This document shows positions 14,713-42,597 of a stretch of DNA of 45,312 nt, one piece after another. Every line of letters starts with the position of its first letter. Position 1 is the first letter of the stretch. Source of the stretch: Candidatus Micrarchaeota archaeon (GTDB taxonomy: Archaea; Micrarchaeota; Micrarchaeia; Micrarchaeales; CABMGC01); NCBI GenBank assembly GCA_021812185.1, contig JAKAON010000003.1, positions 1-45,312 on the forward strand, read 5' to 3'. The notes under the pieces were generated by a model. The model was not told the DNA's origin and did not search any database. It was given only the letters and a program-made list of their open reading frames with translations. The position numbers and the translations under genes are program-made.

Positions 14713-17493
14713 GTGGTTTGGTTGGATAAGACATACCGTCTATTTTTAGAGATGTACACTGAGTTTACATCAATACAAAAAGTGGCAATACCGATAATCG
14801 AAAGCGGAGAGAACTGCCTGATAATAGCACCGACAGGAGGAGGTAAGACGGAAGCGGCGCTTCTTCCCATACTAAACAAATTATCAAAAGGGCAGAAGAA
14901 TGGCATACGCGCGATATATATCACCCCTTTAAGGGCCTTGAATAGAGACCTGATAAAAAGGCTTGAGAGGATATGCGGAGATATAGACGTTAGCATATCA
15001 GTGAGGCATGGCGATACTAAACAAACTGAAAGGAGAAAGCAGGCTATCAATCCACCGCAAGTATTGATAACTACTCCAGAGAGCATGCAAAGCATCTTGA
15101 TAAATAAGAGCCTTAGAGCTTCATTGAAAAATATACAGGCAGTGATAGTAGATGAACTTCATGAGCTTTACCATAATAAGAGAGGTGCGCAGCTCGCCGT
15201 TGCTTTGGAAAGGCTTGTAGAGCATGCTGGAGAATTTCAGAGGATAGGCATAAGTGCTACTGTTAGCAACCCAGAAGCTACTGCAGGGTTTTTGTTTTCG
15301 GAAAGAAAAAGAAAGATAGCAGACGTTTCTGAGCTTAAAAAGTTGGATATACATATAATATCTCCGAAGAACCCTAAGAGAGAGCATATTGAATTACAGA
15401 ATGCTTTTGACTTGAATAAAAAATCGATAGCAAGAATAGAATCCATAGCAGATATTGTAAGACATGGTCATTCGACATTGATATTCGCAAATACGCGCCA
15501 GATAGTAGAATCGCTTGGTAACAAGCTGATATATTTCGACAACTATGAGCATTTTGGACCCATAGCAGTACATCATGGGTCATTGAATCAAGAGGAAAGA
15601 GTTTCTGTAGAGAATAAATTCAAGGAAGGCGAGATAAAAAGCATAATAGCTACGAGCTCTCTAGAGCTCGGAATAGATATAGGGAGTATAGACCAGGTTA
15701 TACAATATAATTCCCCTAGGCAGGCAACAAGGCTTGTGCAGCGAATAGGAAGGTCCGGGCATAAAGAGGGAAGGGCAGCAAGTGGAACAATAATTGTAGG
15801 CAGTGCACTTGATGCGCTGGAAGCCATTGCCATATCGGAATCTGCGGCTAAAGGATTATACGAACCTCAAGAAATAGAAGAAAAGCCCTACGATGTAATG
15901 ATAAATCAAATATGCAGCATGATAATAGAATACGGGACATTGAGCATAGATACTGTTTTTAGGGTTTTGAAAAGGTCTTACACATACAGAAATATGTCTA
16001 TGGAAGAGTTAGAAAGAATAGTGCTCTTTGGCAAGGACCAGCACATATTGAATGAAAAAGACAGGTCGCTAAAAATCGGATCACGCACTTTGAAGTATTA
16101 TTATAATAATATAAGTCTGATAGCAGATAAAAATTACTTTAAAGTGAAGAATACAGTTACTAATAGGGTAATATCCAATCTCGACGAGAATTTTGTTTCT
16201 AATTATATTGATATAGGTACGGTGTTTATAACAAAAGGCCTGCAATGGCGTGCTATAAGCATAGAAGAAGACGTGATATATGTAGAGCCTAGTTTAGAAC
16301 TTGAAGCAGCCATACCAGATTGGGAAGGGGAGGATATACCTGTTTCTTTCGACATAGCCCAAGCGGCTTTTGATATATTCAGCAGCGGCAAGTATAGCAA
16401 TTCCACAGGTTATGCAGACATGGATACGATAGACTCCCTAAACGAGATGATGGCGAGCCAAAGTAAGTTTAGAATGCCCCAAAGAGATATTCTTCTGATC
16501 GAGGAGCAGGATAATTATATAGTGATATTTGCGCCTTTCGGTAAAAAAGCAAATGAAGCACTTAGTAAAATTATATTATCAGTAGTGATATCTTCTACAA
16601 ATCAAGAATATCTTTTAAGAGCCACGCCTTATGCAATAATAATAGAATTGGGATATACCAATAAGAGATTGGATATACTTTCGATCATCAAGAGTTTGGA
16701 AAAAGTAGATGTGGCTAATTTCGTTAGTAACAGCGTATCATTGCGAAATTCGGAAGTTTTTAGATATAGGTTCTTGCAAATATCGAAAGCTTTCGGCGTG
16801 CTTGAAAAGAAGGCAGTAACTACTAAAAGCGTCTCGACAAGACTTGTTGATTTTTACAAAGATTCTCCGATATTTGATGAGACAGTCAGGGACCTTTTGA
16901 AGAATTATCTTGATTTTAATAAAGCTGCGGAAATTATAGGCAAGATTAAGAAAAATACTTTGAAAATTGGTGTTGTTTACTCTGATTGTTCGCCGTTTGC
17001 AGATGAATTGCTAAGATCGGCGTATAAATATAGGGAGCTGTTTGCGCCGATAGGCGAGAATAGCGAGGAGGTAGATCAGTTTCTGGACGGGATAATGAAG
17101 AAAAATGTTGACATTTATTGCACTTTTTGCAGTTACAGGAAAAGATACCGCCTTTCTGATTTTGAACCTAATGCACCCATAAAGTGCGAAAATTGCAAAA
17201 GCAGGATGGTTACCATTTTGAAGGATAAATACGAAGATGTCTTAAGGAAAAACAGCGAGGGCAAGAGATTAACTAAAGTTGAAGTAAATACATACAGGGA
17301 GATATTGAAAATAGTTGGATTGATAGAGGCATATGGACCTAGGGCCATCATAGCATTATCCTCATACGGAGTAGGTCCAGAAACGGCATCCAGGTTGCTT
17401 AGGATGCTAAGAACTGATGAAAGGGCGTTCGTTGTTGATATCATAAATGCGCAGAAAAATTTCGTGAAATACAAAAGATTCTGGAAAAGTTGA
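14713..17493 (+). CDS. lhr: Lhr-family SF2 helicase with C-terminal Zn finger
   Basis: APTGGGKT, DELH, SAT, SSLELGIDIG, QRIGRSGH, IPDWEGE; CTFC..CENC and YGVGPETASR. Confidence 0.93.
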   Translation: MVWLDKTYRLFLEMYTEFTSIQKVAIPIIESGENCLIIAPTGGGKTEAALLPILNKLSKGQKNGIRAIYITPLRALNRDLIKRLERICGDIDVSISVRHGDTKQTERRKQAINPPQVLITTPESMQSILINKSLRASLKNIQAVIVDELHELYHNKRGAQLAVALERLVEHAGEFQRIGISATVSNPEATAGFLFSERKRKIADVSELKKLDIHIISPKNPKREHIELQNAFDLNKKSIARIESIADIVRHGHSTLIFANTRQIVESLGNKLIYFDNYEHFGPIAVHHGSLNQEERVSVENKFKEGEIKSIIATSSLELGIDIGSIDQVIQYNSPRQATRLVQRIGRSGHKEGRAASGTIIVGSALDALEAIAISESAAKGLYEPQEIEEKPYDVMINQICSMIIEYGTLSIDTVFRVLKRSYTYRNMSMEELERIVLFGKDQHILNEKDRSLKIGSRTLKYYYNNISLIADKNYFKVKNTVTNRVISNLDENFVSNYIDIGTVFITKGLQWRAISIEEDVIYVEPSLELEAAIPDWEGEDIPVSFDIAQAAFDIFSSGKYSNSTGYADMDTIDSLNEMMASQSKFRMPQRDILLIEEQDNYIVIFAPFGKKANEALSKIILSVVISSTNQEYLLRATPYAIIIELGYTNKRLDILSIIKSLEKVDVANFVSNSVSLRNSEVFRYRFLQISKAFGVLEKKAVTTKSVSTRLVDFYKDSPIFDETVRDLLKNYLDFNKAAEIIGKIKKNTLKIGVVYSDCSPFADELLRSAYKYRELFAPIGENSEEVDQFLDGIMKKNVDIYCTFCSYRKRYRLSDFEPNAPIKCENCKSRMVTILKDKYEDVLRKNSEGKRLTKVEVNTYREILKIVGLIEAYGPRAIIALSSYGVGPETASRLLRMLRTDERAFVVDIINAQKNFVKYKRFWKS

Positions 17494-19141: not shown

Positions 19142-21058
19142 ATGGATGGTTTAAAAGATGCGGAAGAGTACAACGCATCGAAAATCATAGTGCTTGAAGG
19201 CCCCCAGGGGATAAGGAAGAGGCCTGCAATGTATATAGGTTCGACAGGATCCTATGGGGTGCTCCATTTACTCTACGAGGCTTTTGACAATGCGGTTGAT
19301 GAAGGCATTGCAGGCTACTGTAAAAATATAACAGTACACCTGACAAGCACAGATACCGGAGATGTTGCGGAAGTAACAGACGATGGAAGAGGGATACCAG
19401 TAGACATAATGCCAAAGCAAAACAAGCCGGCTTTAGAAGTAATAATGACTTCTTTGCATTCTGGAGGAAAATTCAACAACGACGCTTACAAGACATCTGG
19501 AGGGCTTCACGGGGTTGGTTTGACAGTAATAAATGCGCTTTCAGAGAATACAGAGGTAACGGTAAAAAAGAACGGATTTTTGTACAAACAAACCTTCAGC
19601 AAAGGCGCAGTTACATCGGAACTTGAAAGGATAGGTGAAACTACAGAGCACGGAACAACAATAAAATTCAAGCCGGATCCTGAAATATTCAACGTCTGCT
19701 CTTTCGAATCATCATCGATAAAAGACAGGATGAAATACACTAGTTTTTTGAACAAGGGACTGCGGCTTAAATTCATAGATGATAGATTTGGGACTCATGA
19801 AGAAGTCGATTATTATTCAGACAAGGGAATTATAGATTATCTAGAATACCTGAACCTAGAAAAAACCACCATAACTGAAAAAATGTATATGAAAAAGGAA
19901 GTTGAAGGGACAATTGTTGAAATAGCGCTGCAATACAATGCCACTTACGATGAGCGCCTCTCGTCTTTTGTAAATAATATACAGACAATGGAAGGAGGAG
20001 CGCACGTAATAGGTTTCCATTCTGCACTTACACGCGCAATACTTAATTACACTGGAAAGGGGAGGAATGATAAAAAAGATATTAAACCGACTGGGGAGGA
20101 TGTTAGAGAGGGACTTACAGTAATTATAAATATACTTATGCAAAATCCAGAGTTTGAAGGGCAAACCAAGGAAAAACTAGGAAGCACTAAAATAAAGAGC
20201 ATTGTTGAGACGGCAGCATACGCCTGGCTATCTAGATATCTTGAAGAACATCCTTCAGATGCGCGTGCGATATGGGACAAAGTAACCAATGCAGCTATGG
20301 CGAGAGAGAGTGCACGTAAGGCAAAGGAACTTGTGAGGAGAAAAAACGCTTTTGAAACTACAATATTGCCAGGAAAACTTTCTGATTGCACTGAAGAGGA
20401 TCCGGAAAGAGCGGAGATGTTTCTTGTTGAAGGACAGAGCGCAGGTGGATCAAGTAAGCAAGCAAGGGATAAAAAATATCAAGCCATACTACCGTTAAGA
20501 GGAAAAATATTGAATGTCGAAAAAGCCAATGATGACAAAATATTCCAAAATGAGGAAATAAGGAACATGATAACTGCGATAGGCGCAGGGGTAAGGGAGA
20601 GTTTTGATCCTGATAAGGTCAGATACAAAAAAATTATAATAATGAGCGATGCTGACGTTGACGGAAGCCATATTGCAACATTGATACTCACTTTCTTTTA
20701 CAGATTCATGAAGAAGGCTATAGAAAGAGGCTACATATATGTCGCACTCCCGCCACTTTACAAGGTCACTAAAGGTAAAGAGATAAGATATGCATATAAC
20801 GACGCTGAATTGGAAAATTTGATAAAGGAATTAGGCAACAAAGTCGGAATCCAAAGATACAAGGGTCTTGGAGAGATGAATCCCGAACAACTTTGGGAAA
20901 CTACAATGGACCCTGCAAGGAGGGTGCTCAAGAGAGTAAACATAAAGGATGCTGAAAGGGTCGAAAAACTCTTTGTTGTACTTATGGGGGTGAATGTTGC
21001 AGATAGAAAGAGGTTCTTGGAAGAGCATTCACATGAAGTGAAGTTCCTAGATATATAG
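19142..21058 (+). CDS. gyrB: DNA gyrase subunit B
   Basis: IRKRPAMYIG, GGLHGVG, EGQSAGG, PLRGKILN, DADVDG and QRYKGLGEM motifs. Confidence 0.96.
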   Translation: MDGLKDAEEYNASKIIVLEGPQGIRKRPAMYIGSTGSYGVLHLLYEAFDNAVDEGIAGYCKNITVHLTSTDTGDVAEVTDDGRGIPVDIMPKQNKPALEVIMTSLHSGGKFNNDAYKTSGGLHGVGLTVINALSENTEVTVKKNGFLYKQTFSKGAVTSELERIGETTEHGTTIKFKPDPEIFNVCSFESSSIKDRMKYTSFLNKGLRLKFIDDRFGTHEEVDYYSDKGIIDYLEYLNLEKTTITEKMYMKKEVEGTIVEIALQYNATYDERLSSFVNNIQTMEGGAHVIGFHSALTRAILNYTGKGRNDKKDIKPTGEDVREGLTVIINILMQNPEFEGQTKEKLGSTKIKSIVETAAYAWLSRYLEEHPSDARAIWDKVTNAAMARESARKAKELVRRKNAFETTILPGKLSDCTEEDPERAEMFLVEGQSAGGSSKQARDKKYQAILPLRGKILNVEKANDDKIFQNEEIRNMITAIGAGVRESFDPDKVRYKKIIIMSDADVDGSHIATLILTFFYRFMKKAIERGYIYVALPPLYKVTKGKEIRYAYNDAELENLIKELGNKVGIQRYKGLGEMNPEQLWETTMDPARRVLKRVNIKDAERVEKLFVVLMGVNVADRKRFLEEHSHEVKFLDI

Positions 21059-21066
21059 TTGGTTTG

Positions 21067-23502
21067 ATGGACAAGATATTCGAGACACCATTGGAAGAAG
21101 AACTTCAGACCAGTTATGTTGATTATGCAATGAGTGTCATTATTGGAAGGGCTATCCCAGATGCGAGGGACGGACTTAAACCCGTCCAAAGAAGGATATT
21201 ATACGGGATGTATAATCTTAGCAATACGCACGACCAGCCTACGAAAAAGAGTGCAAGGATAGTTGGAGAAGTTATGGGTAAATTGCACCCTCACGGAGAT
21301 ATGGCGATATATGATGCACTTGTGAGGATGGCACAGCCTTTCTCCCTCAACCACACTTTTGTAGAAGGACAGGGAAATTTCGGTTCTGTAGATGGAGATC
21401 CACCTGCACATATGAGATACACTGAAGTGCGCCTTACCAAGATAGCCGAAAACATGTTGGATGACCTTGAAAAAGACACTGTAAATTTCCTGCCTAATTT
21501 TGACAATACAGAAAAGGAACCAGCTATACTTCCGGCAATGATACCTAATTTATTAGTGAATGGGGCTTCGGGGATAGCAGTCGGTGTAGCAACCAGCATG
21601 CCACCGCATAATTTAGGGGAAGTGTGTGACGGGATAATAAAGATGTTAGAAAATGGAGACGTCACATCTGATGAAATGACAAACATCATCAAAGGGCCAG
21701 ATTTCCCGACAGGAGGCACTGTGATGATGTCCACCAACGCATATAATGGATATAAATATGGCAGGGGACAGGTCACGATAAAAGCTACAATAGAAGTAGA
21801 TGCTAAAAAGAATAGATTGACAATTACAGAGATACCTTACAACTCCAACAAATCCTCAATAATTGAAAATATAGCGCAATTAGTCAGGGATAAAAAATTA
21901 GTTGGGATATCTGATTTGCGTGATGAGAGCGACAAAGAAGGCATATCGATAGTTGTAGATCTTAAGAAGGACGTAAATCCAGACAGTGTTATAAATGGAC
22001 TTTATAAGCACACTCAGCTTGAAGTTACGTTCCCAATAATAAATCTTGCAGTGGTCGGAAATAATCTAAGGACTTTCAACGTCCTTCAATTACTTAAGAC
22101 ATTTCTTGATCATAGGAGAGACGTTATAAGGAAAAGGAGCACGTTCGAACTTAATGTTGCGAAAGATAGGCTTCATATCGTAGAAGGATTGCGTATAACG
22201 ATAGATAAAATAGAGGAAGTAGTAAAGCTCATTAGGAATAGCGATGAGGCAAAGGGCGCAAGAGAGGCGTTGATGAGAACATATACGCTTAGTGAAAAGC
22301 AAGCGAATGCAATACTGGACATGAAGCTTTCCAAACTCACCCATCTTGAGGCAGAAACGCTTGATAAAGAAGGTTTGGAACTTAAAACCAAGATAATACA
22401 CTTTACAGGGATATTACAAGACCCGAAGAAAGTAGATGATATAATAAAAGTAGAAACACTTGCGATAAAGAAAGCGTACGCAAGGGATAGAGTAACAAAA
22501 ATCATTAAAGGCGAGGACAGCGAAGATATTCTGGAAGAAGATATGATAAGCAATGAAATGGAGACCATAATACTTACGAGTTTAGGATACGTAAAAAGAC
22601 TTGATCCAAGCAATTATAAGGAACAGGGCAGGGGCGGAAGGGGAGTTATAGTAATCAATCTTAAAGAGAAGGATTTTGTAAAACAGATACTTACTGGATT
22701 CACCAAAGATTATTTGATATGTATATCTGACAAGGGGCAGGCATACTGGCTGAAAATATACAAGATACCTGAAGGGAGCAGATACGCAGAAGGGAAGGCG
22801 ATAGTTAACCTACTCGACATAAAAGATGAAAAAATAATAACGCTTTTTGGAATAAAAGATTTCCAGCACTCGCAGCTATTATTCATGACTAAGAAAGGGC
22901 TTATAAAGAAAGTGCACGCGAGCTTGTTTTCCAAGCCGAGATCAAATGGTATACGTGCAATAACCATAAACAAAGACGACGAGGTAGTGAATGCCACCAC
23001 TTACACTAACGACAAATATGTGCTGATATTTACCAAGAAAGGCAAGGCGATAAAATTCGAGGAATCTGACCTTAGATTCATAGGTAGGACGGCAATGGGA
23101 GTACGCGGAATAAGGTTGAAAAACGGAGATGTCGCAGAAGGAATAATAGCGGGAGATAATGCAGGGTATGTGCTCACGGTTACTGAAAGAGGATTTGGAA
23201 AGCTTACAGATATAGGCAAATATAGGTTGCAAAGGAGAGGAGGCGGAGGTATAATAAACGTAAAAATAAGCGATAAAACAGGGGATGTTGCAAAAGTTTT
23301 GTTCATACCTGGAGGGAGTTTGGAGAATAAGAACGCTGTTCTTGTAAATTCGCAAGGTGTTGCTATAACCATACCCCTTAACTCAGTTAGGATAACAGGA
23401 AGGGCTGCAAAAGGAGTACATCTTATGAAGCTTGAATCAGGGGCCAGAATAGTTGATGTGAGGATTATAGACAAATTAGATGCAGCAGAACATGTTTTGT
23501 AG
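21067..23502 (+). CDS. gyrA: DNA gyrase subunit A
   Basis: DGLKPVQRR, HPHGD, MRYT catalytic Tyr, GyrA box QGRGGRG and pinwheel repeats. Confidence 0.96.
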   Translation: MDKIFETPLEEELQTSYVDYAMSVIIGRAIPDARDGLKPVQRRILYGMYNLSNTHDQPTKKSARIVGEVMGKLHPHGDMAIYDALVRMAQPFSLNHTFVEGQGNFGSVDGDPPAHMRYTEVRLTKIAENMLDDLEKDTVNFLPNFDNTEKEPAILPAMIPNLLVNGASGIAVGVATSMPPHNLGEVCDGIIKMLENGDVTSDEMTNIIKGPDFPTGGTVMMSTNAYNGYKYGRGQVTIKATIEVDAKKNRLTITEIPYNSNKSSIIENIAQLVRDKKLVGISDLRDESDKEGISIVVDLKKDVNPDSVINGLYKHTQLEVTFPIINLAVVGNNLRTFNVLQLLKTFLDHRRDVIRKRSTFELNVAKDRLHIVEGLRITIDKIEEVVKLIRNSDEAKGAREALMRTYTLSEKQANAILDMKLSKLTHLEAETLDKEGLELKTKIIHFTGILQDPKKVDDIIKVETLAIKKAYARDRVTKIIKGEDSEDILEEDMISNEMETIILTSLGYVKRLDPSNYKEQGRGGRGVIVINLKEKDFVKQILTGFTKDYLICISDKGQAYWLKIYKIPEGSRYAEGKAIVNLLDIKDEKIITLFGIKDFQHSQLLFMTKKGLIKKVHASLFSKPRSNGIRAITINKDDEVVNATTYTNDKYVLIFTKKGKAIKFEESDLRFIGRTAMGVRGIRLKNGDVAEGIIAGDNAGYVLTVTERGFGKLTDIGKYRLQRRGGGGIINVKISDKTGDVAKVLFIPGGSLENKNAVLVNSQGVAITIPLNSVRITGRAAKGVHLMKLESGARIVDVRIIDKLDAAEHVL

Positions 23503-23595
23503 ATGTGACGGATATTTGTGTTATTTAATAGATGAATTGGCAGATAGGTATATATTCAATGGAAGTGTAATTTGACTATGGGTAAGGCGGTAAAT

Positions 23596-24345
23596 ATGGC
23601 ATCAAAAAAACATACTAATAAATCACCACAGAAGATGAAATTAAAGAGTGGATCGAAGAGCGCAAAGCCAAAAAGAGCATTCAAGCCAAACCTTAAAGTA
23701 AGCAAACAAGTTAAAAAAACACACGCACCGAAGGCCAGCACATCAACTAAGATTGCTGCAATGACACATAAAAAAATAAAAAATATCCAGGTAAAAACAT
23801 CTGTGAAAAAGGCAGATAAGCCAAGAAAGTCAAAAAAGAACGATGTTTCTCTAAAAATATTGACCCCAGAGATGGTAGAATCTCTTAAGAAAGATGTGGT
23901 TTTTACAGAATATGTGAATGGTAAGATAGGAAAAAGGGCAAACGAGATAATACTTTCCCTTGCATCGCCAATGACAGATGAAGCACTTGCAGAAAAATTA
24001 GAAATGAAAATAAATGATACCCGAAGAGTATTGAATATGTTAAATACGGACGGTGTGGCGAGATACATAGTCAATAAGAACAATAAAGGGTGGCTGACTT
24101 TCAAATGGTATATAGACGAAGAGAACCTAAAGAAAATGAGGGGGGAGATCGTCATAAAAGCCGTAACGAACAACACCATACTTCCAGATAATTGCAATGA
24201 TTTTTATATCTGCACAAAATGCTATGACAAGGCAAAATTAGTGTATCCGTTCGAAGTAGGATATGAGATGAACTTTAAGTGTGGAGAATGTGGTTCTTTC
24301 TTTGCAAGAAAAAGTAAAGAAGATATAGAAAGTATGTTGTTTTGA
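23596..24345 (+). CDS. tfe: Transcription factor E (TFE alpha) with Lys-rich N-terminal extension
   Basis: TDEALAEKLEMKINDTRRVLNML wHTH, GWLTFKW, Zn ribbon CTKC..FKCGECG; start uncertain (23572/23578/23596). Confidence 0.85.
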   Translation: MASKKHTNKSPQKMKLKSGSKSAKPKRAFKPNLKVSKQVKKTHAPKASTSTKIAAMTHKKIKNIQVKTSVKKADKPRKSKKNDVSLKILTPEMVESLKKDVVFTEYVNGKIGKRANEIILSLASPMTDEALAEKLEMKINDTRRVLNMLNTDGVARYIVNKNNKGWLTFKWYIDEENLKKMRGEIVIKAVTNNTILPDNCNDFYICTKCYDKAKLVYPFEVGYEMNFKCGECGSFFARKSKEDIESMLF

Positions 24346-24409
24346 TGATTTGAATATTGTTTTTTATTCAATAACCATTTTATTTGTTCTTATTCTAATA
24401 CACAAATAC

Positions 24410-24484
24410 AGCGAGGTAGGGTAGCCTGGAGTGCCCGCCGGGCTCATAACCCGGAGATCGGAGGTCCAAATCCTCCTCTCGCTA
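24410..24484 (+). tRNA. Initiator tRNA-Met(CAU)
   Basis: A1-U72 pair, anticodon arm CCGGG-CTCATAA-CCCGG with three consecutive G-C pairs. Confidence 0.93.
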
Positions 24485-24515
24485 TTCTTATTATAAAAAT
24501 TCAAAACAACCTTCC

Positions 24516-24628
24516 ACAGTACATTTCCACTATTATTTTTCAAAATCAGCGTTTTTGATATAACACTGTTATAAAAGTTATATTTTTATATATTATATAT
24601 AAGAGCAAGAATAGTGGAACTGTAGTGT
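24516..24628. repeat. 19-bp inverted repeat (17/19) flanking an AT-rich spacer; candidate replication origin or terminus element
   Basis: ACAGTACATTTCCACTATT (24516-24534) versus AATAGTGGAACTGTAGTGT (24610-24628). Confidence 0.6.
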
Positions 24629-24743
24629 CCTTTGTCTTTTTGTCGACTATTTTTTGTTTTTTTAAAAATGTTTTTAAAAGTAAACGTATTTCGAGACAAC
24701 CCTTATTAATCTTGCTTTACAATTATTGTTTAAGGTGTTGTGG

Positions 24744-25235
24744 ATGTCTGATTCTGTGAATTTTGATTTGTTATTCGACGTTTTCCAAGAAGAGAAAAAG
24801 AAAGGAGACATCCAGCCTCTTGCAAAAGACTTTTATATAGACGCGCTAGAATATATTAAGAAGCTAGAACAGGGCGGAAACGGATCTGTAGAGACAATAA
24901 AAAAAATAGAGAATTTCAAAAAGCTTCTCGTAGGTCTCAAGGAAAGGAGAAGGCAAAAGTTGCTTATATATTTGGCATACAACAAATCTCTCCCGGAAAA
25001 GATACCATTCGACGATGAGCAACTCTACATAAAATTGAAAAACACACTAAATGAGCAAAATTCAGGAGAGATAAAACTGTTGAAACTCAAAATAAATTCA
25101 GATATACCTCAAATAATAACGCCAAACGGAAGTAAACTCGGGCCTTTTAACCAGAACCAGATAATAGAAGTAAACAATCATGTTGATCTGGAATTTTTGA
25201 TAAACAATAAAGTTGGAGAAATAATACAAGTGTGA
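24744..25235 (+). CDS. DNA replication complex GINS protein (Gins51-like)
   Basis: EKKKGDIQPLAKDFY, RRQKL and C-terminal B-domain (GSKLGPF); conserved position upstream of rpl44e. Confidence 0.8.
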   Translation: MSDSVNFDLLFDVFQEEKKKGDIQPLAKDFYIDALEYIKKLEQGGNGSVETIKKIENFKKLLVGLKERRRQKLLIYLAYNKSLPEKIPFDDEQLYIKLKNTLNEQNSGEIKLLKLKINSDIPQIITPNGSKLGPFNQNQIIEVNNHVDLEFLINNKVGEIIQV

Positions 25236-25239
25236 TGAA

Positions 25240-25521
25240 ATGAAATTGAAAAAAGAGATAATGACATACTGCAAGACATGCAACAAACATACTAAGCACA
25301 ATGCCAATAACTATTCAAAAAAACCCGAAAGATGGATGAATGTGGGTAAAAGAAGGCACGAGCGCGCAATTAAGGGATACGTAGGAAGCGTAGAACCTAA
25401 AGTCCACCCAAAGAAACTAGGTAAAAAACAAAAAGCAATACTCACGTGCACTGTGTGCAAAAAGTCATCTGAAAGAGTATTTGGGAGGAGAACAAAGAAG
25501 AAAATAGAAATAAAGCGCTGA
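25240..25521 (+). CDS. rpl44e: Ribosomal protein eL42 (L44e)
   Basis: TYCKTCNKHTKH and LTCTVCKK Zn finger; basic. Confidence 0.95.
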   Translation: MKLKKEIMTYCKTCNKHTKHNANNYSKKPERWMNVGKRRHERAIKGYVGSVEPKVHPKKLGKKQKAILTCTVCKKSSERVFGRRTKKKIEIKR

Positions 25522-25526
25522 TCTTA

Positions 25527-26297
25527 ATGATAATTAAAAAAAATCTCCCTTCTAATGGAGAGCTAGTCTTCATAAAAATAAAAAAAGTCACGCATTTTGG
25601 CGCATATTGCGAACTCCCAGAGTACAATAACATGGATGTATACCTTCCAATAAGGGAGGTAGCTTCAGGCTGGATAAAGAACATACACGAATTCATAAAA
25701 GACGGCCAAAAAGACGTAGCCAAAGTAACATTCGTAGATTCTGTAAAAAACGCCATAGACATATCTCTTAAGAAAGTGCGTGCTAAAGAGAAGAAAGACA
25801 AAATAAATCAATTCAACCTTGAAAATAGGGCCGAAGGCTTCTTTAAGCAGGCAATAACGGCTTCCCATTCAGAAGGCAAGGAAGAGGAGATAAAATCAAT
25901 ACTATCCAAAAAATACACCAATTACTCGGATATAATAGATGACGTTGCAGACAAGAAGGAAACGCTCAAAGACCTTGGGCTTGAAAACGCTTTCTTGGAA
26001 GCGTTTTTGGACATAATAAGCAAAAATGTCAAGCCTAAAGTGTACATGGTGTCATACATCGCGCAGTTCCAGACATACGACACCAAATCAGGCATCCAAA
26101 TCATAAAAAAAGTTTTCGATGAGATCCAGAAGCTCGGTGTAAAAATAACATATCTTGGGGCTCCAAACTACTCGTTAATATCTGAAGATTCAAGCTATCC
26201 TAAGGCGGAAGATAGGATAAAGAAAGCACAGATCATAATGGAGAAATATGTAAAATCCAATACGGGCACTTTCGCTCTTAAAAAAGAAAAGGATTAA
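25527..26297 (+). CDS. eif2a: Translation initiation factor aIF2 alpha
   Basis: S1 domain (GAYCELPEY, EVASGWIKNI, IDISLKKV); YLGAPNY. Confidence 0.95.
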   Translation: MIIKKNLPSNGELVFIKIKKVTHFGAYCELPEYNNMDVYLPIREVASGWIKNIHEFIKDGQKDVAKVTFVDSVKNAIDISLKKVRAKEKKDKINQFNLENRAEGFFKQAITASHSEGKEEEIKSILSKKYTNYSDIIDDVADKKETLKDLGLENAFLEAFLDIISKNVKPKVYMVSYIAQFQTYDTKSGIQIIKKVFDEIQKLGVKITYLGAPNYSLISEDSSYPKAEDRIKKAQIIMEKYVKSNTGTFALKKEKD

Positions 26298-40471: not shown

Positions 40472-41317
40472 ATGGCTTCAGAGATACTCAGGCGTGAACA
40501 AACTGACAAATCAACTACGCAGCCCCAGCTCGAGCAGGGGATGCACCCATCATTTCTGAATGTTTTGATACAGAAAAAATCAATAAAAGAGAAAACAGCC
40601 GGGATTAAGCATCGCATTGGAGTGTACAGCGCAAAAGGAGGGGTGGGAAAGACCACTGTTGCTGTTAACTTGGCATATGCCCTAAGCGAAATGGGTCTCT
40701 CTGTAGGTCTGCTTGACGCAGATATAGACTGCCCAAATGTAACGTTCTTCATGGGAATAAACACGGTAATACCCCAAGATTACCCTCTCAAGCCTGTGGT
40801 TAAAGACGGCATAAAGGTTATGTCAACTGCCTTATTCATCGAAGACAAGGAAAAGCCAATAATGTGGAGAGGCCCGATGAAAGGCAAAATGCTAAGGGAA
40901 TTTTTCGAGAATACCTCCTGGGGAGACCTAGATTATATAATAATTGATCTGCCCCCTGGGACCAGCGATACCCCCCTCTCGCTAATGCAGTTACTGGATC
41001 TTGACGGGATACTTCTCGTGACAACTCCTCAGTCAATAGCCGCAAAGAACGCAATACGATCCGGATACATGGCAAAAAGGATGAACATACATCTCTTCGG
41101 CGTCGTGGAAACAATGTCTGGGAACAGCCCTGCTGGCGCACTTCACGTATCTAAGGTCCTCAATACAGACCTTCTGGGAACCATAAAATATGATGAAAAG
41201 TTCAACGAGTGCAGCGATATCGGCAAAGTGCCCTTCCTAACAGAGAAGCATATCCACGATGCATTCGAAGATATAGCCAAGAAATTGTCATCTTTAGGTA
41301 AAAAAACAAGCTCATAA
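40472..41317 (+). CDS. Mrp/NBP35 family P-loop ATPase
   Basis: KGGVGKT, DADID, IMWRGPM and IDLPPGTSD motifs. Confidence 0.92.
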   Translation: MASEILRREQTDKSTTQPQLEQGMHPSFLNVLIQKKSIKEKTAGIKHRIGVYSAKGGVGKTTVAVNLAYALSEMGLSVGLLDADIDCPNVTFFMGINTVIPQDYPLKPVVKDGIKVMSTALFIEDKEKPIMWRGPMKGKMLREFFENTSWGDLDYIIIDLPPGTSDTPLSLMQLLDLDGILLVTTPQSIAAKNAIRSGYMAKRMNIHLFGVVETMSGNSPAGALHVSKVLNTDLLGTIKYDEKFNECSDIGKVPFLTEKHIHDAFEDIAKKLSSLGKKTSS

Positions 41318-41379: not shown

Positions 41380-42597
41380 ATGAAAGAACCATTCTCAGAT
41401 TTGCTCAAGGAATCCTCGATATTCAAGAACAGGGCCGCGCTATCTCCTAATTTTATACCCGAGCATCTTCTATTCAGGGACAAGCAAATAGATTCCATAG
41501 TCAAGGTTCTCACACCATCCCTCAAGGGAGACAAGGGAAGGAACCTATTCATTTACGGAAAGACGGGTACAGGGAAGACATCATGTATGAGATATGTTCT
41601 TGACAAGGTAAAGAACATCTCAACTGTAAGGGCAAAAATATCATACATAAACTGCAGGCTTCATAATTCAAGGTACCGTGTCCTAAATAAAATATTGTCT
41701 GATCATCTTCCTGCTTACGCCAAGCACGGCTACGGCACAGTGGACATATACGGCAAGATAATAAACTGGATAGAAGAGGATACAAAGATACTTGTGGTGG
41801 TTCTTGACGAAATAGATATGGTCACCGACCTCGACGACCTAATATACACGCTCACGCGCGCTAACAACGACATGAAATCCGGAGGCATAGTGATAGCCGG
41901 AATCTGCAACAATATATCATTCAAGGACAAGCTCGATCCAAGAAGCCTATCATCCCTATACGAGGCAGAATTGGTATTCCCTCCGTATAATTCAAACGAA
42001 CTCTCAGAAATACTCAAGCAGCGCGCCGAACTGGGATTCAAGAAGGATGTAATAGAGCCGCAGGCAATAAATCTCGCAGCTGCAATATCTGCAAAAGACA
42101 GCGGAGATGCCAGGCTTGCTCTCAAAATGCTCTCAAATGCCGGAGAACTCGCCGAGGAAAAGGGAGAAAAGAAGATAACTATAGAGGATGTACGCGATGC
42201 TTCTAAAAACGCAGAAGAGGAAATAGCGTACGAGTTGGTAAGTACGTTGCCTGAACATCAGCGCCTCATAGTATATGCAATAGCCATGCTCACAATACAG
42301 GGAAGCAGGTACAAGAAACTTGTACAAGGCGAAGACACATACCTATTCAGCGGCGAGGTATACGACAAATATGTGGCAATAATAAATTCATTGAAAAAGG
42401 ATCCAAAGAGCTCAAGGTGGTATAGAAAGTACATAACTGATTTAGAGATGCAGGGCCTCGTGGCGACGTACGAATCCGGAAAGGGGATACGTGGACATAC
42501 CAAGCTCATAAAACTGCTGTATCCTCCAGCAAAAATAAGGAATACCATAGAAAAAGGGCTGTTCAACGAATCTGAAGCCGAAGTCAAGACAACATGA
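41380..42597 (+). CDS. cdc6: Orc1/Cdc6 replication initiator
   Basis: GKTGTGKT, LDEID, FPPY, GDAR; C-terminal wHTH with GIRGHT. Confidence 0.96.
   Translation: MKEPFSDLLKESSIFKNRAALSPNFIPEHLLFRDKQIDSIVKVLTPSLKGDKGRNLFIYGKTGTGKTSCMRYVLDKVKNISTVRAKISYINCRLHNSRYRVLNKILSDHLPAYAKHGYGTVDIYGKIINWIEEDTKILVVVLDEIDMVTDLDDLIYTLTRANNDMKSGGIVIAGICNNISFKDKLDPRSLSSLYEAELVFPPYNSNELSEILKQRAELGFKKDVIEPQAINLAAAISAKDSGDARLALKMLSNAGELAEEKGEKKITIEDVRDASKNAEEEIAYELVSTLPEHQRLIVYAIAMLTIQGSRYKKLVQGEDTYLFSGEVYDKYVAIINSLKKDPKSSRWYRKYITDLEMQGLVATYESGKGIRGHTKLIKLLYPPAKIRNTIEKGLFNESEAEVKTT

Follow-up and report, generated by a model that had tools for sequence, protein, structure and literature searches.

Does the gap between a tRNA-Met gene and a gins-like open reading frame (ORF) in a Micrarchaeota genome hold the origin of chromosomal replication, with the initiator gene orc1/cdc6 lying kilobases away? 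The question is raised by a 45,312-nucleotide stretch of DNA from Candidatus Micrarchaeota archaeon (GenBank assembly GCA_021812185.1, contig JAKAON010000003.1), here called the window, which is one whole contig (C70) of an assembly of 921 kb in 78 contigs with a completeness of 88.5%. An initial annotation had read inverted repeats around an AT-rich element in this gap as a candidate origin or, alternatively, a terminus of replication. In this study, we closely examined the repeat and its counterparts in related genomes, and we predict that positions 24513 to 24631 probably constitute a chromosomal replication origin, a minimal module of two inverted origin recognition boxes (ORBs) around a DNA unwinding element (DUE) that is unlinked to cdc6. 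Sequence comparison shows the module to be conserved across an order of Micrarchaeota and to be recognisable in other orders as well. No Micrarchaeota replication origin is described in the literature that we searched, and the supplementary motif tables of Ori-Finder-Arch could list the motif. Below, G000 stands for this assembly, other G-numbers (G017, G039, G042, G047 and so on) stand for genomes of relatives, and L-numbers stand for loci.

Direct comparison of the two arms, ACAGTACATTTCCACTATT (24516-24534) and its inverted copy (24610-24628), revealed complementarity at 17 of 19 positions, exactly as first proposed, and a repeat search lengthened the arms to 22 nt with 86% complementarity (24513-24534 and 24610-24631). 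The 75-bp AT-rich spacer between them was likewise found as described, including the AT-rich string quoted from it, and only 21 of the 45,238 75-bp windows of the contig are richer in A+T. Inverted repeats of this quality (at least 17 of 19 positions, spacer of 40 to 120) occur once in the surrounding 10 kb and in none of 30 first-order Markov sequences. When the 19-mer arm was searched for with up to three mismatches, the 921-kb assembly yielded just these two arms; since they are unique in the genome, a repeat family or a miniature inverted-repeat transposable element was rejected as an explanation. Two further elements that the initial annotation had added to the picture, a related TACACTTCCATT at 23558-23569 and an extra TTCCAC at 24512, are present but score -0.7 and -9.7 bits, respectively, on a matrix of the relatives' boxes and are chance matches. 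The DNA is carried by 16 public runs labelled as mine-drainage metagenomes, with no RNA run listed among them. Among four assembled-contig runs that were compared, a contig from another study spans 24455-25580 without differences, a diverged relative has a canonical box directly behind its tRNA-Met, and no strand-change joint was seen; assembled contigs of this kind do not reveal rare inversions or gradients of depth.

The initial annotation had suggested searching for the motif genome-wide and in the tfe-gins gaps of relatives, and this search found it unique in the assembly and conserved across the order. Two samples of loci were analysed. For the first, ORF 24744-25235 was used to draw loci from 40 relatives, with matches in 37 of 41 genomes, G000 included; the second comprised 80 loci from contigs of one genome per species, of which 76 were usable and four had too little upstream DNA. 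The samples share species, and 73 to 77 distinct modules are left once duplicates are dropped. The gene order tfe, tRNA-Met, gap, ORF and L44e recurs in the relatives, with tRNA-Met upstream of the module at 24 of 29 loci in the first sample and at 55 of 69 in the second. At 24 of 30 loci in the first sample, an inverted pair was present that departs from the two 10-mer cores by at most three mismatches and whose spacer measures 71 to 92 bp. Five more loci (L012, L022, L029, L024 and L026) carry a diverged but recognisable pair, which the scripted pair-finder had missed at L024 and L026 by taking the wrong left arm, and the pair is absent in L016. In the second sample, the pair was found at 69 of the 76 usable loci, and its spacer measures 72 to 82 bp in 65 of these 69 (mode, 74). 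Spacers of 73 modules have a mean A+T content of 76%.

Genome-wide counts indicated that the module is usually present once. Of 151 genomes sampled from the order, 98 contain a strict pattern (TTCCRSTAWT, 50 to 120 bases, AWTASYGGAA, no mismatches): 96 carry a single copy and 2 carry two copies. The reversed pattern, used as a control, matched 2 of the 151. Without the unpublished genomes G038 and G081, both of which match, the count for the order is 96 of 149; the same two genomes are also included in the class-wide tallies. Across the class, 84 of 301 sampled genomes with a completeness of 85% or more contain the strict pattern: 36 of 49 in the family to which the window belongs, 40 of 69 in its sister family and 7 of 182 elsewhere. 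One class-level match, in G305, looks like chance, its outer tract being absent. In viral contigs, the core pattern by itself matched 37 stretches, all of them lacking the outer tract and with 43 to 72% A+T in the spacer, so that these too are chance matches and give no link to mobile elements.

A position-specific matrix gave the same picture. Built without G000, it ranks the two arms of G000 first and second in the whole assembly (scores in Table 1; next best, 17.7 bits), and in G039, which lies outside the training set, the top two matches form a pair about 155 bp apart just upstream of gins. At a threshold of 14 bits, two boxes were found at 65 of the 80 loci of relatives, one at 11 and none at 4, and a third box at 0 of the 80. 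In the two genomes with two copies of the strict pattern, G044 (C30:405-496 and C31:126224-126316) and G054 (C4:168-261 and C9:47182-47275), one copy each lies within 500 bases of a contig end. Such double modules might be explained by an additional origin, by a bin that mixes strains or by duplication in the assembly.

The boxes of the lineage follow the consensus ACCCCACAnTTCCACTATT, in matrix form (A)ACACCCYACAnTTCCACTATT, which reads AATAGTGGAAnTGTGGGGT on the opposite strand. The module is asymmetric: next to one arm comes CG, with a TTATATAATATA-like run some 8 nt further, and next to the other comes ATTT. The consensus of the strong arm is accordingly ...TTCCACTATT-CG-(N~8)-TTATATAATATA, and the outer side of the ATTT arm varies more. 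The CG arm is also the arm that adjoins a TATA-like run (the TATA arm) in 52 of 54 informative modules; in G000, the TATA arm is the gins-proximal one. The outer G/C tract of a box is either CCC or GGG, and the two arms are of opposite type in 21 of 77 modules; the tract therefore need not continue the inverted repeat. In G000, the left box is an arm of the weaker ("other") type whose outer part, TCCACAGTACAT, does not have the C/G tract of the relatives. The right box is an arm of the strong type with the outer part CTGTAGTGTCCT, and its G-string has decayed to GTAGTGT from the consensus GTGGGGT.

These boxes resemble in part those of known archaeal origins. The euryarchaeal ORB consensus, GTTCCAGTGGAAAC-AAA----GGGGG, has AGTGGAA and a 3' G-string in common with the lineage box (PMC1868953). 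In the Pyrococcus mini-ORB, exemplified by TTCCAGTGGAACT, TTCC and GAA are said to be invariant, and the lineage box keeps one of these motifs, GAA on the aligned strand and TTCC on the other (PMC1904270). A hallmark of archaeal origins is an AT-rich unwinding element flanked by inverted ORBs, which often end in a G-string (PMC4010727, PMC3528665), and the Ori-Finder-Arch preprint states the layout ORB(-)/DUE/ORB(+) as their pattern (doi 10.64898/2026.08.15.744077). With its intergenic inverted boxes flanking an AT-rich spacer, the module fits this layout.

Comparable arrangements, in which inverted boxes of the Orc1/Cdc6 type flank an AT-rich element, are found in Pyrococcus oriC, Sulfolobus oriC1 and Haloferax/Haloarcula oriC1 (PMC1868953, PMC1904270, PMC4010727, PMC3528665). 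The lineage box shares with the euryarchaeal ORB consensus the AGTGGAA core and a G-string on the same side, and replication genes lie near the module as they do at such origins. In contrast to these origins, the module has two boxes without a mini-ORB cluster, its boxes keep half of the dyad with AAT for TTC, and its G tract stands 4 nt from GGAA and may be CCC or GGG. Its box gap, unlike theirs, is tightly fixed at about 74 bp, cdc6 lies 17 to 146 kb away, and the conserved neighbour is an initiator-type tRNA-Met. The oriC of Hyperthermus butylicus, a member of a different phylum, likewise has ORB(-)/DUE/ORB(+) without an adjacent initiator gene; it is likened here by the description of its layout, not by box sequence (doi 10.64898/2026.08.15.744077).

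The spacer of the G000 module contains a near-central palindrome (Table 1). A TAAC-N3-GTTA palindrome occurs in 2 of 73 modules versus 0.4 expected in shuffled spacers. Mid-spacer palindromes were also seen by eye in some genera among the order's strict-pattern matches, and modules of other orders show GTAAC-N4-GTTAC at mid-spacer, with TGTAAC(C/T)AT(A/G)GTTACA in three genomes (L171-L173). Such central palindromes may point to a second DNA-binding factor, with a putative accessory-protein site at some modules.

The module is not tied to one gene context. Among 73 distinct modules, 55 are oriented towards the tRNA and 18 towards gins, which on a GINS protein tree corresponds to at least 11 flips of orientation; the tree is built on a short protein and is a rough guide only. 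A pair with G-strings in another order is flanked by two convergent genes, PRC-barrel and tRNA-Met, whose 3' ends face it, so that a promoter is not needed there. Modules of a third group come after an ECF-S or FtsX gene, with unrelated genes on the far side. Within about 4 kb of the modules of other orders, neither cdc6 nor gins was matched. The occurrence in both orientations and in unrelated contexts argues against a dedicated gins operator and for a self-standing element.

In many prokaryotes, chromosomal rearrangements are symmetric about the axis from origin to terminus. We analysed this symmetry in G042, G047 and G017, which represent three genera and of which G042 and G047 are large contigs, not closed genomes. 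Reciprocal best hits numbered 350, 304 and 321 for the three genome pairs, and all pivot pairs on a 10-kb grid were scored by the rank correlation of gene distance from the pivot. This scale-free score replaced an earlier pivot scan with a fixed 25-kb tolerance, in which the module ranked just 128th of 700. For G047/G042, the best pivot lay at 390/260 kb with the modules at 386.7/253.0 kb, and one of 5694 cells scored above the module pivot. For G047/G017, it lay at 400/570 kb (modules at 386.7/566.8 kb; 5 of 6278 cells above), and for G042/G017 at 270/540 kb or the antipode (modules at 253/567 kb; 59 of 6708 cells above). Best pivots were located within 4 to 27 kb of the modules in all three pairs. 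Between G042 and G017, 27 inverted genes lie on the opposite side of the module, and the anti-diagonal that they form meets the diagonal 6.3 kb from it. Rearrangements among the three relatives are roughly symmetric and centred on the module. Two strong boxes per genome, both orientations, unrelated contexts and symmetric rearrangements together point to an autonomous chromosomal element. The proposal of a cdc6-unlinked origin with inverted boxes, put forward in the initial annotation, thus finds support as a prediction in a conserved single-copy module, its partial ORB likeness, its independence of context and the symmetry axis.

The gene at 41380-42597 is the single orc1/cdc6 gene of the assembly (one tblastn match), and its product is the presumed initiator that would read the boxes. 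Its distance from the module, given as 17 kb at the outset, was confirmed for G000 and amounts to 146 kb in G017 and 95 kb in G039. Intergenic DNA at cdc6 measures 62 bp upstream and 4 bp downstream, which leaves no room for an origin beside the gene. Adjacency of an initiator gene is usual but not universal at archaeal origins according to the Ori-Finder-Arch preprint, in which prediction pipelines are described as ranking initiator-adjacent intergenic regions first (doi 10.64898/2026.08.15.744077); such pipelines could therefore pass over the module.

Downstream of the module, ORF 24744-25235 gave no match in Pfam, and its NCBIfam match to Gins23 (E = 1e-7, 32 bits) is far under the cut-off of 120. 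Profile A1, built from 23 homologues, matched GINS chains in the PDB (9moj_C, E = 3.1e-6; 3anw_A, E = 3.4e-4; 7yil_A, E = 5.7e-3) and reached PSF2 chains at E of about 0.4. Because the profile matches solved GINS subunits, the ORF is, judged at this level, a distant homologue of a GINS subunit. The earlier claim that GINS is adjacent to the repeat is weakly supported, by profile-level likeness and not by Pfam or the Gins23 cut-off.

Several observations weigh against 24513-24631 being an origin. Raw GC and AT skew of G017 (complete, 852,977 bp) has no replication-type switch, its strand-corrected third-codon-position skew has no V-shape, and no replication-type skew was detected in the first 340 kb of G039. 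The gene-strand bias of G017 does not switch at the module either. In the window, G017 and G039, skew tracks the coding strand straight through the module; since none of the three has replication-type skew, skew is uninformative either way. The symmetry result depends in part on nearby genes: without those within 40 kb of the module, the cells above the module pivot rise to 140 of 6708 for G042/G017, 487 of 6278 for G047/G017 and 2 of 5694 for G047/G042, and without those within 80 kb to 257 of 6708, 471 of 6278 and 350 of 5694. Just 63%, 56% and 53% of the orthologue pairs keep their orientation relative to the axis, and the symmetry of the rearrangements would suit a terminus as well as an origin. 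At the level of the boxes, half of the ORB dyad is missing from the lineage consensus, where AAT stands for TTC, and neither box of G000 has the G/C tract of its relatives (ACAGT and ACACT instead of ACCCY). The gene context adds three points. The module is not adjacent to cdc6, by which an archaeal origin is usually called; gyrB, gyrA, tfe and tRNA-Met run towards the module and thus head-on to a leftward fork; and in relatives of the second sample the right core ends 15 to 86 nt before the gins match, versus 124 nt in G000, which makes a role in gins transcription possible there.

The same evidence bears on other readings of the module. That it is a terminus-associated, chromosome-resolution or segregation site, served by a dedicated protein instead of Cdc6, seems unlikely to us. 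Rearrangement symmetry fits such a site equally well, and positive support for the terminus named in the initial annotation comes down to that test. It would also agree with the genes that converge on the module in one other order, with the upstream genes that run towards it here, and with the cumulative GC skew of the window and G017, which in noisy profiles is near a local maximum around the module and not a minimum. The boxes of the lineage, however, bear the ORB core and a G-string, and their layout is that of ORB/DUE/ORB. An archaeal dif site consists of one 28-bp element whose short arms surround a 6-bp centre, a form unlike two 22-bp boxes 75 bp apart. Moreover, once the skew, which tracks the coding strand, is corrected, no replication component remains in it, and the gyrase, tfe, GINS, ribosomal and initiation-factor genes in the neighbourhood are of the kinds usual near origins.

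Control of the gins-L44e-eIF2alpha run by a transcription factor that binds the boxes as an operator, with the promoter in the spacer, appears rather improbable. The module fills the whole gap between tRNA and gins in most relatives, with the right box close to the gins match as given above. As the gap is filled and a TATA-like run lies in the spacer, the gins promoter must overlap the module in most relatives. The orientation of the module relative to gins, however, goes both ways, and in other orders, where gins is not close by, the pairs are flanked by convergent 3' ends or lie beside unrelated genes. A lone pair of boxes per genome gives no regulon, G000 has 112 bp more between module and gins, and a fixed half-site gap of 72 to 82 bp is unusual for an operator. 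The extra 112 bp are probably the promoter region of gins itself. Compatible with the module being an origin, Cdc6 bound there could modulate gins transcription as a side effect.

It is very improbable that the inverted repeat acts through structure, as an RNA hairpin in a tRNA-gins co-transcript or as a DNA cruciform: the 22-nt arms are 86% complementary and, by eye, roughly half of the genomes show agreement between the arms at the single position flanking the core that varies freely, which is above random, yet that position is mismatched in the other half, outer G/C tracts of opposite polarity (C/G or G/C, in the 21 of 77 modules noted above) break complementarity, the 10-nt cores are invariant and do not co-vary, an Rfam scan of 23000-26000 at E of 1 or below matched tRNA as the sole family, and the module occurs in both orientations relative to transcription.

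The features of the locus are listed in Table 1. The proximity of gyrase genes to the repeat, one of the initial arguments for an origin, was confirmed by the Pfam and NCBIfam matches of GyrB and GyrA just upstream. The tRNA-Met gene has its 3' end facing the module, with 28 nt between its end and the left arm; by eye, it has an A1:U72 end pair and a GGG/CCC anticodon stem, which we take to be initiator-like. Tfe, the initiator-type tRNA, GINS, L44e and eIF2-alpha form a conserved neighbourhood that mixes genes of replication, transcription and translation initiation.

Table 1. Features of the window around the predicted origin module and the orc1/cdc6 gene
Feature	Position	Strand	Description
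gyrB	19142-21058	+	Pfam, NCBIfam
gyrA	21064-23502	+	Pfam, NCBIfam
tfe	23572-24345	+	Pfam, NCBIfam
tRNA-Met	24410-24484	+	anticodon CAT; ARAGORN; Rfam tRNA, 55.8 bits
Gap holding the inverted repeat	24485-24743		259 bp, between tRNA-Met and gins-like ORF
Left box, tRNA-proximal	24513-24534	+	ORB-like; core TTCCACTATT at 24525-24534; 20.5 bits
Spacer	24535-24609		75 bp, 81% A+T; presumed DNA unwinding element / helicase loading zone
Near-central palindrome	24559-24573		TATAACAcTGTTATA; read from sequence
TATA-like alternating A/T run	24578-24602		TTATATTTTTATATATTATATATAA; adjoins right box and marks TATA arm
Right box, gins-proximal	24610-24631	-	ORB-like; core AATAGTGGAA at 24610-24619; 22.9 bits
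Extra 112 bp between module and gins start	24632-24743	+	T/A-rich stretch at about 24648-24686
gins-like ORF	24744-25235	+	heads the run gins, L44e, eIF2-alpha, PAC2 (neighbours by Pfam)
orc1/cdc6	41380-42597	+	Pfam Cdc6_lid, Cdc6_C; TIGR02928, 337.8 bits

Some further observations were made on the neighbouring genes. At L011 (G017), ARAGORN called no tRNA-Met upstream of the module (positions ~130-350), yet both halves of the gene are present by eye, split after the anticodon loop by an insert of about 75 to 100 nt that is presumably a tRNA intron; an 89-nt "tRNA-Asp" call at the matching place in L030 may be a similar case. At 23572-23900, the TFE-alpha homologue, read from 23597 onward, carries about 100 extra N-terminal residues that are very lysine-rich and resemble a basic tail, and its Pfam TFIIE_alpha match begins only at residue 113. 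Upstream of the module, at a distance of 7 kb, positions 14713-17493 encode a 926-residue helicase of the Lhr-like or ligase-associated DEXH type (NCBIfam PRK13767, E = 2e-133, under the model cut-off). The gene upstream of cdc6 (40472-41317) encodes a P-loop ATPase of the Mrp/NUBPL type that matches the Pfam ParA family PF10609 (E = 4e-67) and is not a partition ParA.

If 24513-24631 is the origin, we infer that Cdc6 binding, melting, MCM loading and initiation would take place at the module itself. One Orc1/Cdc6 protein, encoded 17 kb off, would occupy a box on each side in opposite orientations, its winged-helix domain reading the GTGGAA core and the initiator-specific motif of its AAA+ domain contacting the flanking G/C tract. 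Between the two bound initiators would lie about 74 bp of readily melting DNA, where two MCM rings could be loaded head to head, and the TATA-like run beside the stronger box would be the likeliest point of first melting. In yeast autonomously replicating sequences (ARS), two inverted sites for the origin recognition complex, some tens of bp apart, bracket the place where the double hexamer is loaded. The likeness of the module to an ARS would be one of mechanism only, and no homology of the DNA elements is claimed. ARS1 is described as having ORB-like elements, and Orc1 as making few base-specific contacts, with the winged helix holding the box and the AAA+ motif deforming the adjacent minor groove (PMC3089459). 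With so few base-specific contacts, the G/C tract could work in either polarity.

A broader reading can be put forward only tentatively: Micrarchaeota, and perhaps other DPANN, might use one stripped-down, shape-read origin made of two half-ORBs about 74 bp apart, without a link to cdc6, anchored at the initiator tRNA-Met, freely flipping and gating the expression of gins. On this view, which we consider less likely than not, the gap of about 74 bp might correspond to the size needed for a double MCM ring, and the G/C tract might be read in either polarity. It is also conceivable, if speculative, that the gins promoter lies inside the origin in most of the order and that initiator occupancy gates the run of GINS and translation genes. 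Origin licensing might possibly be coupled in this way to the supply of a helicase activator.

Three features of the module deserve attention: its boxes number just two, the gap between them is held at about 74 bp, and the G/C tract can have either polarity. The fixed 72- to 82-bp gap and the polarity-tolerant tract amount to predictions on spacing and on shape readout. If the module is indeed an origin, its roughly 120 bp would provide a very small natural substrate for the study of how two inverted Orc1/Cdc6 proteins load MCM. It would also serve as a simple sequence marker by which the many fragmented genomes of the phylum could be oriented and closed, and as a landmark for estimates of growth rate from read depth in acid-mine and sediment communities.

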